32,000 nt of DNA, taken from contig JAQTNI010000007.1 in NCBI GenBank assembly GCA_028713935.1, positions 1-32,000 of the forward strand, read 5' to 3'. Positions within the stretch are counted from its first letter, which is position 1. Every line of letters starts with the position of its first letter. Both the position numbers and the translations under genes were made by a program. A model generated the notes under the pieces. The model saw only the letters and a list, made by a program, of their open reading frames with translations. It was not told the DNA's origin and made no database searches. Shown here one piece after another: positions 12,065-21,884 of the stretch. This DNA is from Candidatus Iainarchaeum sp. Its GTDB lineage: Archaea > Iainarchaeota > Iainarchaeia > Iainarchaeales > GCA-2688035.

Positions 12065-12127
12065 TTTTTTGCAGTTTTGCCAATCCCTTTTTATTAAATT
12101 TGGCGCATAATTATTTAGGTGTTTTTT

Positions 12128-12349
12128 ATGGAATTTGATGTTGTTTTTGAAAAGCAGAAGGAAGGTGGTTTTACTGTTTATGTTCCGGGCTTGCCTGGCT
12201 GCATTTCTGAAGGGGAAACAAAATTGGAAGCATTGAAAAATGTCAAAGAAGCAATTTCCCTTTATCTTGAAGAAAAGAATAAATCAGAAATAAGGCAATT
12301 ATTGGATTCTGTCTCTATAGAAAAAGCCGCCGTGAAAATTCATGCCTAA
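12128..12349 (+). CDS. hicB: HicB-family antitoxin (N-terminal HicB fold only)
   Basis: MEFDVVFEKQKEGGFTVYVPGLPGCISEGETKLEALKNVKEAISLYLEE is the classic HicB/UPF0150 signature. AGGTG lies 5 nt upstream of ATG 12128. It overlaps hicA by 8 nt. Confidence 0.8.
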   Translation: MEFDVVFEKQKEGGFTVYVPGLPGCISEGETKLEALKNVKEAISLYLEEKNKSEIRQLLDSVSIEKAAVKIHA

Positions 12350-12560
12350 ACTCTGGAATGTTTCTGCAAGAGAAGTTGTTAAAGTTTCTTCTCGGCTTGG
12401 TTTTGTTTTTGCAAGGCAAAAAGGCAGCCACATTATTCTGAAGCACAATGATGGCAGGCTTCTTGTAATCCCAAATCATGAAAAACTAAAAATTGGCACT
12501 TTGCTGCAGATAATAAAAGCCCTGGGAATCAGCAGGGAAGAATTTGAAAAATTGCTTTAA
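12342..12560 (+). CDS. hicA: HicA-family mRNA interferase toxin
   Basis: REVVKVSSRLGFVFARQKGSHIILKHNDGRLLVIPNHEKLKIGTLLQIIKALGIS is the YcfA/HicA dsRBD-like fold with the conserved GSH...H. Confidence 0.85.
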   Translation: MPKLWNVSAREVVKVSSRLGFVFARQKGSHIILKHNDGRLLVIPNHEKLKIGTLLQIIKALGISREEFEKLL

Positions 12561-12626
12561 CACTATCTTTTTGTAAACCATGGTTTTTTATTAGCCAACA
12601 ACCATTATCTTTTGAGAGGTGTTTTT

Positions 12627-12863
12627 ATGAAAAAAGTGATTGTTTATTCAACTGATACCTGCCCTTTCTGCACAATGGCAAAGGATTTCCTGAAAAGCAA
12701 AAAAATAAAATTTGAAGAATTCAATGTTGCTGAAAATGAGGCAAAGCTGCAGGAAATGCTGAAAAAATCTGGCCAGACAGGAGTGCCTGTAATTGACATT
12801 GCAGGAGAAATAATAACCGGCTTTGACAAGGAACGCATAGAAAATGCGCTTGGCCTGAAGTGA
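12627..12863 (+). CDS. Glutaredoxin / NrdH-like redoxin
   Basis: MKKVIVYSTDTCPFCTMAKDFLKSKKIKFEEFNV...GVPVIDIAGEIITGFD has a CPFC active site and the GVP cis-Pro region. AGGTG lies upstream of ATG 12627. Confidence 0.85.
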   Translation: MKKVIVYSTDTCPFCTMAKDFLKSKKIKFEEFNVAENEAKLQEMLKKSGQTGVPVIDIAGEIITGFDKERIENALGLK

Positions 12864-12881: not shown

Positions 12882-13151
12882 ATGAATGCCGCTGAAAAAC
12901 AAATTTTGGATGAAGTAAAGGCTTATGCAAGGAAAAACGGCTTCAGGATAAATCCTGACAGCAAAATAGTTGAAGCTGTTGTAAAGGGCCTTGCAAAAAA
13001 CCTTGGAAGATATGGCAAAAAAATCTGCCCCTGCAGGGTTCCGACTGGCAAGGCAGAAGACGATGAAAAGCTTGTCTGCCCCTGTGCTTTTCACATTGAA
13101 GAGATAAAAAAAACAGGCCACTGCAAATGCCGCCTTTTTTTCGCCAAATAA
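12882..13151 (+). CDS. Ferredoxin:thioredoxin reductase catalytic-subunit-like protein (ferredoxin:disulfide reductase, FDR)
   Basis: ICPCR...x16...CPCAFHIEEIKKTGHCKCRLF is the CPC/CPC/C-x-C cluster-plus-disulfide signature of the FTR catalytic chain. At 89 aa it is a single-subunit archaeal type. Confidence 0.8.
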   Translation: MNAAEKQILDEVKAYARKNGFRINPDSKIVEAVVKGLAKNLGRYGKKICPCRVPTGKAEDDEKLVCPCAFHIEEIKKTGHCKCRLFFAK

Positions 13152-13422: not shown

Positions 13423-15462
13423 ATGGTTCAAAAGTTTTTGGAGTCTGTCAGGAAGCGCGATGGTTCAATTGCCCCTTTTGATGCCAACAGGGTTACTGAA
13501 GCTATTTTTTCCGCTGCAAAGGCTGTCGGCGGCACTGACAGGAAAATTGCTGAGCAATTAGGCGAAAAAGTAGTCCATTCCCTGAAGAAAAAATTTGGCA
13601 CAAAAATCCCTGAAGTTGAGGAAATCCAGGATGCGATTGAAAAAGAGCTTATTGAGGCTGGCCATGCGAAAACAGCCAAGGCATTTATTCTTTACCGCAC
13701 CAAAAGGGCTGAGCTGCGCGAAGCAAGCGCTTTTTTGAAAAAAATTTCCAGCATTGTTGATGGTTATGTTTCCTGTTCTGATTGGCGTGTTTTGGAGAAC
13801 AGCAATGCGGGCTATTCTCTTTCGGGAATGCAGGCCCATATTTCCGCTGCTGTTATTGCTGAATACACTTTGAGGAATATTTATCCTGAAGAAATTTCGA
13901 GTGCGCACAGGAACGGGGATTTTCATATTCATGATCTGGGAAATGGTGTTTTTTCAGGTTATTGTGCTGGCTGGTCTCTTGGGCAATTGCTTGAGCTTGG
14001 CTTTAATGGTGTGCCTGGCAGAATTTCCGCAAAGCCGGTTAAGCATTTTAATGCTGCGCTTGGCCAGATAGTGAATTTTATGGGCACTTTGCAGAATGAA
14101 TGGGCTGGTGCACAGGCTTTCAATAGCTTTGACACTTATCTTGCGCCTCTTGCAGCAAAGGATAATCTTTCTTATAAGCAGATAAAGCAGTCTTTGCAGG
14201 AATTTATTTTTGCAACCAATGCAACAAGCAGATGGGGAAACCAGGTTCCTTTCACTAACATTACAATGGACTGGACAGTTCCGGAGGACATGAAGGACGA
14301 CCCTGTTCTTTATGGCGGGGAATACCTTGAGAATGAAACTTATGCTGTTTACCAGAAGCAAGTTGAGCAAATCAACAAGGCTTTTTTGGAAATAATGGCT
14401 GCAGGGGACATGCATGGAAGGGTTTTTACTTTTCCAATTCCAACTTATAATATTACAAGGGATTTTGAATGGAATTCAGAAGCCGCAAACCTTTTGTTTG
14501 AAATGACTGCAAAATATGGAATTCCTTATTTCCAGAATTTTGTGAACAGTGCATTGAAGCCAGGCGATGTCAGGTCAATGTGCTGCCGCTTGCAGTTGAA
14601 CCTGAAAGAACTGAAAAGCAAGACCGGCGGCTTGTTTGGCAGCGGTGACAAAACAGGCAGCATTGGCGTTGTTACAATTAACATGCCAAAAATCGGTTAT
14701 CTGGCAAAAGATGATTCTGATTTTTTTGAAAGGCTTGAGCAATTAATGTATCTTGCAAAGGAAAGCCTTGAAATAAAAAGAAAAGAGGTTTCAAAAAACC
14801 TTGAAAACGGGCTTTTGCCTTGGAGCAAGCGTTATTTGGGAACACTTGACTATCACTTTTCAACTATTGGGCTTGTTGGAATGAACGAAGCCTGCCTCAA
14901 TTTTTTTGATGAAGGCATTGCAACAAAACAGGGAAGGGATTTTTCATTGAAAACACTTGAATTCATGAGAAACAGGCTTCAGGAATTCCAGCAGGAAACA
15001 GGCCATATTTATAATCTGGAAGCTACTCCTGCAGAGGGCACTTCTTACAGGCTTGCAAGAATTGACAAAAAGCTTTATCCTGAAATCAAGACAGCCGGAA
15101 CAAAAGAATCTTATTACACCAATTCAACTCAATTGCCAGTGAATTTCACTGACGATATTTTTGAGGCTTTGCAGCACCAGGACGAATTGCAGTCCAAATA
15201 CACTGGGGGCACTGTCCTGCATGGCTTTTTGGGAGAAGCCGTTTCAGATGCAGAGGCCTGCAAAAAGCTTGTGAAAAAAATTGCTTATTCTTTCAAGCTG
15301 CCGTATTACACTATCACTCCAACCTTTAGCATTTGCCCTGTTCATGGTTATATCAAGGGGGCGCATTTCAATTGCCCAGTTGAATTAAACGGCAACCAAG
15401 CAAACGGAGGTGAAACCCAATGGCAGTCTGCAACAGTAAAACTGAAGTCTATAGCAGAGTAG
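13423..15462 (+). CDS. nrdD: Anaerobic (class III) ribonucleoside-triphosphate reductase, large fragment lacking the glycyl-radical motif
   Basis: N-terminal ATP-cone (RKRDGSIAPFDANRVTEAIFSAA). Thiyl-Cys loop GDVRSMCCRLQL. C-terminal TPTFSICPVHGYIKGAHFNCPV is followed by the unrelated tail ELNGNQANGGETQWQSATVKLKSIAE*. The RVxGY motif is not in this frame. Confidence 0.9.
   Translation: MVQKFLESVRKRDGSIAPFDANRVTEAIFSAAKAVGGTDRKIAEQLGEKVVHSLKKKFGTKIPEVEEIQDAIEKELIEAGHAKTAKAFILYRTKRAELREASAFLKKISSIVDGYVSCSDWRVLENSNAGYSLSGMQAHISAAVIAEYTLRNIYPEEISSAHRNGDFHIHDLGNGVFSGYCAGWSLGQLLELGFNGVPGRISAKPVKHFNAALGQIVNFMGTLQNEWAGAQAFNSFDTYLAPLAAKDNLSYKQIKQSLQEFIFATNATSRWGNQVPFTNITMDWTVPEDMKDDPVLYGGEYLENETYAVYQKQVEQINKAFLEIMAAGDMHGRVFTFPIPTYNITRDFEWNSEAANLLFEMTAKYGIPYFQNFVNSALKPGDVRSMCCRLQLNLKELKSKTGGLFGSGDKTGSIGVVTINMPKIGYLAKDDSDFFERLEQLMYLAKESLEIKRKEVSKNLENGLLPWSKRYLGTLDYHFSTIGLVGMNEACLNFFDEGIATKQGRDFSLKTLEFMRNRLQEFQQETGHIYNLEATPAEGTSYRLARIDKKLYPEIKTAGTKESYYTNSTQLPVNFTDDIFEALQHQDELQSKYTGGTVLHGFLGEAVSDAEACKKLVKKIAYSFKLPYYTITPTFSICPVHGYIKGAHFNCPVELNGNQANGGETQWQSATVKLKSIAE
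15406..15413 (+). promoter_or_regulatory. Shine-Dalgarno GGAGGTGA inside the nrdD 3' region, 6 nt upstream of ATG 15420
   Basis: GGAGGTGA-aaccca-ATG. This is the same AGGTG-type SD seen before hicB, grx, the 16672 ferredoxin, nmd3 and the 25106 antitoxin in this window. Confidence 0.55.
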
Positions 15463-15569
15463 TCGGCTATTTAAGGCCTGTCCAGGCATGGAATGCAGGA
15501 AAACAGGAAGAATTCAGGGACAGAAAAACCTTTTCAGAAGCAAAGGCACTTGAAAAATGCAAGGAATAA
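15420..15569 (+). CDS. nrdD: 49-aa mini-ORF encoding the NrdD glycyl-radical motif (separate frame from the large nrdD ORF)
   Basis: Below the ORF-track length cutoff. It reads MAVCNSKTEVYSRVVGYLRPVQAWNAGKQEEFRDRKTFSEAKALEKCKE*. RVVGYLRPV...WN.GK..E...R is the class III RNR glycyl-radical signature. It has its own SD and ATG and overlaps the last 43 nt of the large ORF. Confidence 0.7.
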   Translation: MAVCNSKTEVYSRVVGYLRPVQAWNAGKQEEFRDRKTFSEAKALEKCKE

Positions 15570-15610
15570 TTTTTTTTAATTTTACTTTCAAATTTTTTCT
15601 TTTTTGATTT

Positions 15611-16324
15611 TTGGGTGTTTGTTTGCCGCTTGTTTTTAAGGGATTGCAGAAAACCACTTTGATTGATTTTCCTGGGCAGATTGCCTGCACTTTTTTCCTG
15701 CCAAAATGCAATTTCAAATGCGGTTTTTGTTATAACCCAAACCTTGTTTTTGATGAGGAAACAGGCACAAGAATTTCCGAAAAAGAGGCTCTTGCTTTTC
15801 TTGATGAAAGAAAAAACTTTTTGGACGGGGTATGCATTTCCGGCGGAGAGCCCACTCTGCATCCAGGCCTTCCGGAATTTTGTGCAAAAATCAAGGAAAA
15901 AGGCCTGCTTGTGAAGCTTGATACGAATGGTTCAAATCCTGAAATGTTGAAAAGCCTGATTGAAAAAAATCTTGTTGATTTTGTTGCAATGGACATCAAG
16001 GCTTCAAAGGAAAAATATTCCCTTGTTTGCGGGGCAAAAATTGATTTGGAAAAAATTTCCGAAAGCATTGGACTCATAAGAAAATCCGGAATTGATTATG
16101 AATTCAGGGCAACTGTTGTGCCATTGCTTGAAGAAAAAGACTTGTTGGAAATTGGCGAATGGCTTAAGGGAAGCAAAAAATTTGTTTTGCAGCAGTTCCA
16201 CAATGAAATGCCGCTTCTTGGAAAAAACCTGCAAAAGCTTTCCCCTTATTCTCCTGAACAATTAAAAAAATTTGCGGAAAAATTAAAGCCTTTTTTTGGA
16301 AAAATTGAAGTAAGGGGAATTTAG
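15611..16324 (+). CDS. nrdG: Anaerobic RNR activating protein (radical SAM)
   Basis: KGLQKTTLIDFPGQIACTFFLPKCNFKCGFCYNP (CxxxCxxC) and GVCISGGEPTL. The start is non-ATG; candidates are TTG 15611 or TTG 15623. Confidence 0.85.
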   Translation: MGVCLPLVFKGLQKTTLIDFPGQIACTFFLPKCNFKCGFCYNPNLVFDEETGTRISEKEALAFLDERKNFLDGVCISGGEPTLHPGLPEFCAKIKEKGLLVKLDTNGSNPEMLKSLIEKNLVDFVAMDIKASKEKYSLVCGAKIDLEKISESIGLIRKSGIDYEFRATVVPLLEEKDLLEIGEWLKGSKKFVLQQFHNEMPLLGKNLQKLSPYSPEQLKKFAEKLKPFFGKIEVRGI

Positions 16325-16374: not shown

Positions 16375-16659
16375 ATGCCTTCTAAAAAGCCTTTTCTTAA
16401 AAAGAAAAGCCTTGGGAAAAGAAAAGCAAATGAAAAGCAGGCTGGGCTTGTTACTGGGGAAATGACTTTTGCAGAGCTTACAAGCAGGCATCCTGCTGCT
16501 ATTCCAATTCTTTTTGAATATGGCTTGCACTGCATTGGCTGCCATGTTTCTGCTTTGGAGACAATTGAACAGGGCGCTCTGGCCCACGGCCTGTCAGAAG
16601 AGCAATTAAAAGAAATGCTTGGAAAAATCAATGGTGTTTCAAAAACTTCAAAAAATTAG
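16375..16659 (+). CDS. DUF1858-type redox-disulfide domain protein (CxxC) with a basic N-terminal extension
   Basis: MTFAELTSRHPAAIPILFEYGLHCIGCHVSALETIEQGALAHGLSEEQLKEMLGKIN matches the hybrid-cluster-protein-associated redox disulfide domain. The N-terminus is PSKKPFLKKKSLGKRKANEKQ. Confidence 0.65.
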   Translation: MPSKKPFLKKKSLGKRKANEKQAGLVTGEMTFAELTSRHPAAIPILFEYGLHCIGCHVSALETIEQGALAHGLSEEQLKEMLGKINGVSKTSKN

Positions 16660-16671
16660 CAAGGTGGTTCA

Positions 16672-16851
16672 ATGGAAAGGCCCTATATTGATTATGGAAA
16701 ATGCAATGGCTGCGGGACATGCATAAATGTCTGCCCTGTAAGCGTTTTTGCAAAGGAAGCCAAGAAAACAGTTGTAAAAAACCCCAGCGAGTGCATTCAA
16801 TGCAGGGCTTGCGAAGCGAGCTGTCCGCAGAAGGCAATTCAGGTAAAGTAA
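16672..16851 (+). CDS. 2x[4Fe-4S] ferredoxin (59 aa; below the ORF-track cutoff)
   Basis: MERPYIDYGKCNGCGTCINVCPVSVFAKEAKKTVVKNPSECIQCRACEASCPQKAIQVK has two canonical CxxCxxCxxxCP motifs. AAGGTGG lies 4 nt upstream of the ATG. Confidence 0.75.
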   Translation: MERPYIDYGKCNGCGTCINVCPVSVFAKEAKKTVVKNPSECIQCRACEASCPQKAIQVK

Positions 16852-21698: not shown

Positions 21699-21884
21699 CG
21701 GACCCGGTGGGATTTGAACCCACGACCCCCGCCTCGCTCCAGCTTTTTTTAATAAAAAACAATCTGGGAATTTTTTTTAACAAAACCAGTTTTTCGAAGA
21801 AAAACTGCTCTTTTCCCAGGGCTTTTCTCTTCAGAGAAAAGGCCTTAGGAGTGCGGTGCCCTATCCAGGCTAGGCTACAGGTCC
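21699..21884 (-). tRNA. tRNA-Arg(CCU) interrupted by a 111-nt intron at the canonical 37/38 position
   Basis: Minus strand reads GGACCUG UA GCCU AGCCUGGAUA GGGC A CCGCA CUCCUA|intron|A GGCGG GGGUC GUGGG UUCAAAU CCCAC CGGGUCC G. The exons total 75 nt and CCA is not encoded. The 31-39 pair is an A.G mismatch. Confidence 0.8.
21735..21845 (-). other. tRNA-Arg intron (BHB-type, 111 nt, highly structured)
   Basis: The 4-bp central helix is CUCC(32-35)/GGAG. It is flanked by the 3-nt bulges UA|A and CG|A. The outer helix is GGC.UUUU/AAAA.GCU. Internal hairpins are CUUUUCUC-UGAA-GAGAAAAG, CUGGGAA...UUCCCAG and CAGUUUUUC-UUC-GAAAAACUG (GAA on the plus strand). Confidence 0.7.

Follow-up and report, generated by a model that had tools for sequence, protein, structure and literature searches.

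A probable two-gene class III ribonucleotide reductase with a separately translated glycyl-radical domain

Introduction

The anaerobic ribonucleotide reductase (RNR, class III) encoded in a 32,000-nucleotide (nt) stretch of Candidatus Iainarchaeum sp. (assembly GCA_028713935.1, contig JAQTNI010000007.1, positions 1 to 32,000 of the forward strand; hereafter the window) very probably consists of two separately translated polypeptides. The large NrdD chain of 679 amino acids (aa) ends without a glycyl-radical domain, and this domain is encoded by a small open reading frame (ORF) for a 49-aa peptide. To our knowledge, the radical domain is located on the same chain in all class III RNRs that have been studied biochemically. 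Of the features that mark a class III RNR, the NrdD barrel with its thiyl-Cys loop is found in the large chain and a dedicated radical-SAM (S-adenosylmethionine) activase is encoded nearby (ORF 15611..16324), but the RVxGY domain is not on the same polypeptide, as its motif sits in the separate 49-aa ORF. An earlier sequence-only reading of the window regarded the locus as an nrdD gene split by a 47-nt insert, and offered a two-piece enzyme, translational bypassing, removal at the RNA level, and a recent lesion or assembly artefact as possible explanations. The first of these is strongly supported by the occurrence of a small ORF with Shine-Dalgarno (SD) sequence and ATG in 59 loci, by the variable frame and spacing of the two ORFs, and by a low ratio of nonsynonymous to synonymous substitutions (dN/dS).

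Domain composition of the two chains

The nrdD ORF (13423..15462, plus strand, frame 1) is recognized in the ORF list and by both Pfam and NCBIfam. Pfam finds an ATP-cone followed by positions 1-525 of the 562 positions of the NRDD model (E 1e-169), and NCBIfam model NF006126 covers positions 3-646 of 684 with 1014 bits (cut-off 548). The thiyl loop MCCRLQ comprises residues 386-391 (nt 14578-14595), and three metal ligands are present near the C-terminus, two in C638-P-V-H641 (within 15331-15351) and the third, C651, in NCPV (within 15370-15381). The glycyl-radical motif RVxGY is absent from the 679-aa chain, both in the translation of the ORF and in the Pfam analysis. The chain ends in a tail of 26 aa, ELNGNQANGGETQWQSATVKLKSIAE (15382..15459, plus strand), that is closed by a TAG codon, is not conserved and is modeled with low confidence. 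The content of this ORF as first described, with ATP-cone, CCRLQ loop, three ligands, a foreign tail and no radical motif, was thus recovered in full.

The small ORF (15420..15569, plus strand) lies in the -1 frame relative to nrdD and overlaps the large ORF by 43 nt. Its product, MAVCNSKTEVYSRVVGYLRPVQAWNAGKQEEFRDRKTFSEAKALEKCKE, starts with MAVCNSKTEVYSRVVGYLRPVQAWNAGKQEEF and matches NRDD positions 526-562 of 562 (E 7.5e-12) and NF006126 positions 646-682 of 684; translation and the Pfam match bear out the observation that the radical motif is intact in another frame. The peptide contains the fourth metal ligand, Cys4 (codon 15429-15431), and the radical glycine, Gly16 in RVVGY (codon 15465-15467). 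All four candidate metal ligands are therefore encoded, divided 3+1 over the two chains (C638, H641 and C651 plus peptide C4). Orthologues of the peptide (P0121-P0123) share 86-92% identity with it, and comparison of the window with the related loci L001 and L161 gives a dN/dS of 0.03-0.08 at a dS of 0.6-1.9; judged by these ratios, the small ORF is under strong purifying selection.

The start of the small ORF is preceded by the SD sequence GGAGGTGA (15406..15413, plus strand), which lies 6 nt before ATG 15420 and inside the coding sequence of the large ORF, exactly as had been proposed. Counting both strands, the octamer occurs a single time in the window, and the site is kept in L001, L161, L163, L164 and L004. 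The statement that several genes of the window use the same SD type holds only loosely, since the sites of the genes near nrdD are weaker and of a GGTG type. Read in another frame, the codons of the large-chain tail form the SD and the beginning of the small ORF; NGGE in the tail, for instance, is encoded by aacGGAGGTGAa. The tails of relatives vary, yet KGGE or KEV is present wherever the SD sits. From the nucleotide sequences, the C-termini under which short NrdDs are found in the databases (KGGE, KEV, and MQCTV, VQRAV or VKANV directly before the stop) are to be read as SD plus first codons of the small ORF and not as a protein motif. At the level of sequence, the locus thus holds two genes that are separately initiated, exactly complementary in domains, both under purifying selection, and located beside nrdG.

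For structure prediction with AlphaFold 2 (AF2), the large ORF was joined directly to the small ORF, using an alignment (A1) of 103 rows of fused, large-only and small-only homologues. The concatenated model has a mean predicted local distance difference test (pLDDT) score of 84.4 and a predicted TM-score (pTM) of 0.80, and matches the class III RNR structures 9dca, 8p23, 4coi and 1h79 with a probability of 1.0 and TM-scores of 0.6-0.75. Residues 658-680, which correspond to the large-chain tail and Met1 of the peptide, have a pLDDT below 50, and the remainder of the peptide reaches 73-90. The segment that follows MCCRLQ (residues 391-407, 14593..14643, LNLKELKSKTGGLFG) scores only about 42 despite the deep alignment, possibly because the finger loop is flexible or because it needs the docked peptide. 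The solved class III RNRs retrieved from the PDB with the full-length sequence are all single chains that include the radical domain, and a PDB search with the artificial junction fragment gave no match.

Distribution of the split architecture

The arrangement was surveyed in 80 genome loci, 80 metagenome loci and four contigs of close relatives, which were classified by script; the metagenome loci come from a scan with chosen seed peptides and represent relatives at no more than 64% identity only. The regular expression for the radical motif was relaxed to accept the variants EVWTRVMGY and LVYSR, as a stricter pattern gave 22 false loci without radical domain. The 153 classifiable loci comprise 92 fused ones, 59 split ones with a downstream small ORF that carries the radical motif, and two (L105 and L131) that are split with no small ORF found; six further loci at contig ends were unclassifiable, and five had no anchor motif. 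In L105 and L131 a short NrdD is followed by more than 1 kb of sequence in which no radical-domain ORF is recognizable on either strand, and the small gene may be located elsewhere or have diverged beyond detection.

The small ORFs of the 59 split loci start with ATG in 56 cases and are 41-196 aa long (median 53). With a criterion of a core of at least 5 nt located 3-13 nt upstream, 48 of the 59 have an SD, versus 86 of 1180 random ATGs (7%) from the same loci. Counted from the frame of the large ORF, 19 small ORFs are in frame 0, 14 in +1 and 26 in +2, and the spacing ranges from a 43-nt overlap (-43) to a gap of +212 nt. The check that had been suggested, namely whether SD and ATG are conserved in relatives, turned out in favor of a functional start, both being kept in most of the 59 split loci and in all three frames.

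The closest genome match, at 92% identity, is a Candidatus Iainarchaeum metagenome-assembled genome (MAG; Diapherotrites, DPANN). Of the best 120 NrdD homologues (64-92% identity), 96 end 10-30 aa past the CP of the third ligand and lack a radical motif. In the Archaea, split loci are present in the Iainarchaeia, the Nanoarchaeia/Woesearchaeota and one Methanosarcinales MAG. The bacterial ones belong to Victivallales, Thermoguttaceae, several spirochaete groups, Leptospirales, Bacteroidaceae, Thermodesulfobacteria, Desulfuromonadales, Holosporaceae and Gracilibacteria, and protein names add Margulisbacteria, Saganbacteria and Bipolaricaulota. The 49-aa peptide, used in a word-indexed search, retrieved 109 clusters with lengths of 33-80 aa. 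Nearly all are stand-alone and Met-initiated; a few are contig-end fragments of full-length genes. The small gene is also found in isolates, namely Thermodesulfatator indicus DSM 15286 (Thein_0123 / WP_013906755.1), T. autotrophicus (WP_157627886.1), Desulfuromonas sp. DDH964 (WP_197463659.1) and Geopsychrobacter electrodiphilus (WP_020674937.1), where RefSeq labels it "hypothetical protein" or just "anaerobic ribonucleoside-triphosphate reductase". Among the four close relatives, the small ORF is annotated in L164 but not in L161, L162 and L163, in which an apparent "intergenic" gap of about 160 nt separates nrdD and nrdG. Split NrdD systems are therefore annotated less often in public data than they occur.

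A complete NrdD paired with an extra radical-domain ORF was not seen among 165 loci. The sole seeming exception, L064, is itself split and carries the small gene and, about 390 nt downstream of it, a partial duplicate (5237 and 5631). The lack of any such pairing indicates that the peptide is the only radical domain of the enzyme and no spare.

Position of the gene boundary and alternative explanations

Removal of 47 nt does restore a textbook C-terminus, as the sequence-only reading had noticed: six registers, from 15377-15423 to 15382-15428, all give a protein of 699 aa that ends in NCPVCNSKTEVYSRVVGY. The description of these 47 nt as an insert, in contrast, was not upheld. In fused relatives, a native loop of 10-25 aa separates the third ligand from the fourth (e.g., CPIEVNGGDIVKCSKRTEVYSRVVGY), and the 24 complete NrdDs among the best 120 homologues mostly show a variable loop at this place (e.g., CPIKVDGGDKVKCGKRTEVYSRVVGY and CPIEVNGGDIVKCSK). 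Since a native loop follows CPV in the fused relatives, the gene boundary falls inside this loop and the 47 nt are not an insertion. The textbook junction after deletion results from the register, the peptide keeping the canonical C-x4-EVYSR spacing. The CAGT direct repeats that were thought to flank the insert are missing in L001 (92% identity) and L161 (84%) and are a chance occurrence; CAGT is found 116 times in the window versus about 125 expected, without enrichment, and L161 would require a deletion of 44 nt and not 47.

The junctions of the Iainarchaeia differ from each other. The small ORF is in the -1 frame with a 43-nt overlap in the window (start MAVCNSK), L001 and L161. It is in the +1 frame with a 26-nt overlap in L163 (aaggaggcgaaacaggATG; start MSKCNARCEVY), in the +1 frame with an 8-nt overlap in L164 (aaggaggtgacactcaATG; start MSECGEKTEIY), and in frame 0 in L004, where ATG comes at once after TAA (start MDKCGQKTEVY). 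Across the junctions, the SD, the ATG and the peptide are conserved, and the frame relation is not.

This variation bears on the explanations in which a single fused NrdD would be made. Recoding could proceed by a -1 shift within 15414-15462 or by a T4 gene 60-like hop that takes off at GUU (15379-81) and lands on GUC (15426-28), and it would agree with the -1 difference between the ORF frames, with the synonymous Val codons that flank the 47 nt and with an A4 run at 15438-41. However, there is no X_XXY_YYZ heptamer in 15414-15462, the only region where a shift could work, and the sole A4 run lies after the Cys4 codon, so that slipping there would skip Cys4. For bypassing, the take-off codon is followed by GAA and not by a stop, local RNA folds (96 and 151 nt) are no stabler than shuffled sequences (z = -0.06 and 0.16), and the take-off and landing codons are not conserved, the pair in L161 being GUU/GCA with a gap of 44 nt. 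Furthermore, L163 and L164 would need a +1 shift, L004 and L005 have an in-frame stop and then ATG, in many loci 50-212 nt separate the ORFs and all three frames contain stops there, and recoding leaves the conserved SD and ATG unexplained. We consider recoding very unlikely. Still less credit is given to excision of the 47 nt from the mRNA, e.g., as an archaeal bulge-helix-bulge (BHB) intron by the tRNA-splicing endonuclease. The host is an archaeon, the window does contain a tRNA gene whose intron measures about 115 nt, and a 4-bp AUUG/CAAU helix with 3-nt bulges can be drawn by hand for register 15377-15423, yet this is the only one of the six registers that gives a central helix (by hand), the outer flanking helices are missing, and the folding energy equals that of shuffled sequences. 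The segment to be removed would measure 44 nt in L161, would belong to the length class 1 mod 3 in L163 and L164 and would be needless in L004, and the split is shared by bacterial lineages that lack the endonuclease.

A recent inactivating lesion, a decaying pseudogene or an assembly or sequencing error is just as improbable as excision, even though the gene looks frameshifted against a textbook NrdD and homopolymers (AAA, CCC) lie near 15413-18. Independent assemblies that are 92%, 84% and about 75% identical (L001, L161-L164) show the same arrangement, as do complete isolate genomes. The small ORF retains its dN/dS of 0.03-0.08 at saturating dS, and nrdG and the redox partners are intact. 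The earlier argument that intact nrdG, redoxin, ferredoxin:disulfide reductase (FDR) and ferredoxin neighbors speak against a long-dead pseudogene agrees with the Pfam matches of these genes. On the comparative sequence evidence, bypassing, frameshifting, RNA excision and pseudogene or artefact are excluded as a general explanation of the split. A different proposal is that the peptide is a spare of the GrcA/YfiD type for a complete NrdD encoded elsewhere and the 679-aa protein a degenerate paralogue. GrcA is a precedent for a free glycyl-radical domain (PMC13450708), and the window covers only part of the genome. On the other hand, no complete NrdD among the 165 loci is accompanied by an additional radical-domain ORF nearby, the small ORF always directly follows a large NrdD devoid of the domain, and the large chain is well conserved (64-92% identity) and in an operon with nrdG, which makes this proposal improbable, if less so than recoding. 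The comparison with GrcA/YfiD made in the sequence-only reading is apt as an analogy and fails with respect to a spare, because the large subunit itself lacks a radical domain; for the same reason, the peptide would be an obligate subunit.

Evolution and subtypes of the split

A neighbor-joining tree of 153 loci, based on 350 core residues, was evaluated by Fitch parsimony and should be seen as a rough estimate. It requires 14-15 changes between the fused and the split state (one of the 15 is a misclassification of L112 by the regular expression), and the split state is polyphyletic. Fused forms with long loops adjoin split forms, which suggests that loop expansion came before the split.

Two types of split can be distinguished. 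In 38 loci, as in the window, the large chain keeps three ligands only and the peptide begins with M-x-x-C. In the other 21 loci the full CxxC knuckle stays on the large chain, and either both pieces have helical, coiled-coil-like extensions (spirochaetes, Bacteroidaceae) or the large chain has a tail of the CPxCDEELIA type. A charged helical end of the large chain (e.g., CPRCKEEQEEELKKQIIELEHER) is seen in L026, L045-L048, L062, L064, L068, L111, L117, L127 and L128, and the small ORFs of helical-type loci have a matching helical segment followed by EGTxxEVYSRIVGY. This suggests that the pieces of the helical type associate by a coiled coil and without a shared metal site.

Other variations of domain architecture were encountered in the same survey. 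The fused NrdD P0066 (752 aa) has two tandem glycyl-radical domains, EIFSRVVGYYRP and then EVFSRVVGYYRP. A thioredoxin/glutaredoxin-like CxxC domain follows the radical domain on complete chains (L007, L012, L013, L019, L053, L054, L069, L071) as well as on detached small subunits, which are then 161-196 aa long (L045-L048, L050, L068, L117, L127). NrdDs of 1071-1113 aa (P0024, P0037, P0038, P0043, P0047, P0078) contain an intein (PF14890/PF14528) and also end without a radical domain, so that an intein and a C-terminal split are combined in one gene.

Proposed mechanism and implications

In a two-piece enzyme, the 679-aa chain would supply the ATP-cone, the catalytic barrel with the thiyl-Cys loop and the ligands Cys638, His641 and Cys651. 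The 49-aa chain, made from its own strong SD and ATG, would supply Cys4 and the glycyl-radical loop RVVG16Y. The gene boundary would fall in a surface loop that varies naturally and that, in this NrdD lineage, interrupts the second zinc knuckle. The peptide is predicted to dock by completing the Cys/His/Cys + Cys metal site and by placing the Gly16 loop inside the barrel next to the cysteine of MCCRLQ, and the adjacent NrdG would put the radical on Gly16 of either the free or the bound peptide. Reducing equivalents would be supplied by the products of the glutaredoxin (Grx), FDR and ferredoxin genes, to which there is a parallel in the Methanosarcina barkeri system that PMC5704485 cites.

The strong internal SD may yield peptide in excess. 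Glycyl-radical enzymes (GREs) expose a buried radical domain to the activase and then re-insert it, and oxygen cleaves the chain at the glycine. A plausible benefit of the split is a cheap, separately activatable replacement for the part that is cleaved by oxygen; alternatively, access for the activase may be easier. We also put forward, with considerable doubt, that the peptide could be a consumable, exchangeable radical cofactor, which would be charged by NrdG while free, made in excess from the strongest SD of the window, docked via the shared metal site, and swapped after cleavage by oxygen or loss of the radical. Such a consumable peptide would provide microaerotolerant anaerobes with a built-in repair cycle for RNR, and with some 14-15 gains or reversions of the split on the rough tree it would be a recurrent adaptive solution and no accident.

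Several considerations temper the two-polypeptide reading. We infer the synthesis of the peptide, the radical on it and its binding to the large chain; the 3+1 metal site is a prediction from the sequence, and the AF2 model is an artificial one-chain concatenation. A second complete NrdD or an RNR of another class may be encoded elsewhere in the genome, beyond the 32-kb window, and a low level of fused product may be formed by slippage at the A4 run 15438-41 in the 43-nt overlap of this clade.

If the enzyme does consist of two polypeptides, a free radical domain of 5-6 kDa makes off-enzyme activation directly testable, as well as how the domain is held (apparently by a metal site shared by two chains) and whether it is exchanged after damage. 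The split also matters for genome interpretation. Most close NrdD homologues in public data look truncated or frameshifted, and split NrdDs run the risk of being called pseudogenes, of being removed from RNR phylogenies by length filters, and of being counted wrongly wherever genomes of DPANN archaea and other uncultured lineages are used to infer anaerobic dNTP synthesis.

Operon context and other features of the window

The gene order in Iainarchaeia is Grx-FDR-(nitroreductase)-NrdD-small ORF-NrdG-DUF1858-ferredoxin-beta-CASP and is syntenic among relatives. Upstream of nrdD, the window encodes a glutaredoxin/NrdH-like redoxin (12612..12863, plus strand, likely start ATG 12627; Pfam Glutaredoxin, E 2e-19) and a protein like the catalytic subunit of ferredoxin:thioredoxin (disulfide) reductase (12882..13151, plus strand; Pfam FeThRed_B, E 2.4e-20), both of which are syntenic in L161. 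Downstream of the small ORF lies the NrdG-type radical-SAM activase (15611..16324, plus strand; Pfam Radical_SAM and Fer4_12), located at the same place in L161, L163 and L164; its start codon is uncertain, with several TTG candidates from 15611 to 15659. It is followed by a DUF1858 protein (16375..16659, plus strand; Pfam) that is conserved 3' of nrdG and syntenic in L161, L163 and L164, and by a 2x[4Fe-4S] ferredoxin (16672..16851, plus strand; Pfam Fer4 families) that is syntenic in relatives and is the probable electron donor of the operon.

Directly upstream of the RNR operon, a HicB-like antitoxin (12119..12349, plus strand; PF15919, E 5e-10) and a HicA toxin (12342..12560, plus strand; PF07927, E 3e-18) are encoded by ORFs that overlap by 8 nt. 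The tRNA gene with the intron of about 115 nt, located in the anticodon-loop region, is found at 21699..21884 on the minus strand (Rfam, 39.3 bits) and was missed by ARAGORN; it identifies the window as archaeal.

Comparison with known systems

A description of a split class III RNR was not found in the full-text literature, a scope that leaves aside subscription-only papers and RNRdb notes. In large RNR phylogenies, sequences were filtered by length or the radical domain was counted as belonging to the chain (PMC9531940, PMC9669993). The loci surveyed argue strongly for a widespread two-gene class III RNR, which is undescribed in the searchable literature.

The canonical single-chain NrdD, as in phage T4, E. 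coli, Thermotoga maritima, Prevotella copri and Streptococcus thermophilus, works with NrdG and shares with the system described here the ATP-cone, the barrel, the thiyl-Cys loop, the candidate ligands of a C-terminal metal site, the RVxGY loop and the adjacent activase. Unlike the canonical protein, the large chain of Candidatus Iainarchaeum stops within the second zinc knuckle, and the final ~37 NRDD positions are part of a separate 49-aa product. In phages, nrdD is known in two coding pieces owing to group I introns, inteins and homing endonucleases (PMC3653736). Mobile elements cause those interruptions and are taken out of the RNA or the protein, whereas the present locus has no mobile element and no splicing signal, and the second piece has a dedicated start.

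GrcA/YfiD and T4 Y06I resemble the peptide in being small, free glycyl-radical domains that work with a large GRE barrel. Homology links GrcA to the C-terminus of pyruvate formate-lyase (PFL) and not to NrdD, and GrcA serves as a spare for a PFL whose own chain includes a radical domain. Neither of these two marks, PFL-type homology and a partner with its own radical domain, is found here: the peptide matches NRDD models only (Pfam, NCBIfam), carries a metal ligand and has a partner without radical domain. According to a 2026 review, formate lyases are the only GRE class with autonomous radical-domain proteins (PMC13450708).

With regard to gene architecture, the split class II RNR NrdJa/NrdJb of Pseudomonas aeruginosa and Thermus phage phiYS40 is similar in that an adjacent gene of its own encodes the C-terminal Cys-rich/zinc module (PMC4520616, PMC5704485, PMC9669993). 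NrdJa/NrdJb belongs to another RNR class with adenosylcobalamin as cofactor, and its detached domain measures 150-220 aa and serves re-reduction, not radical storage. The likeness is an analogy of gene architecture only, and the protein of Candidatus Iainarchaeum is an NrdD and not an NrdJ.

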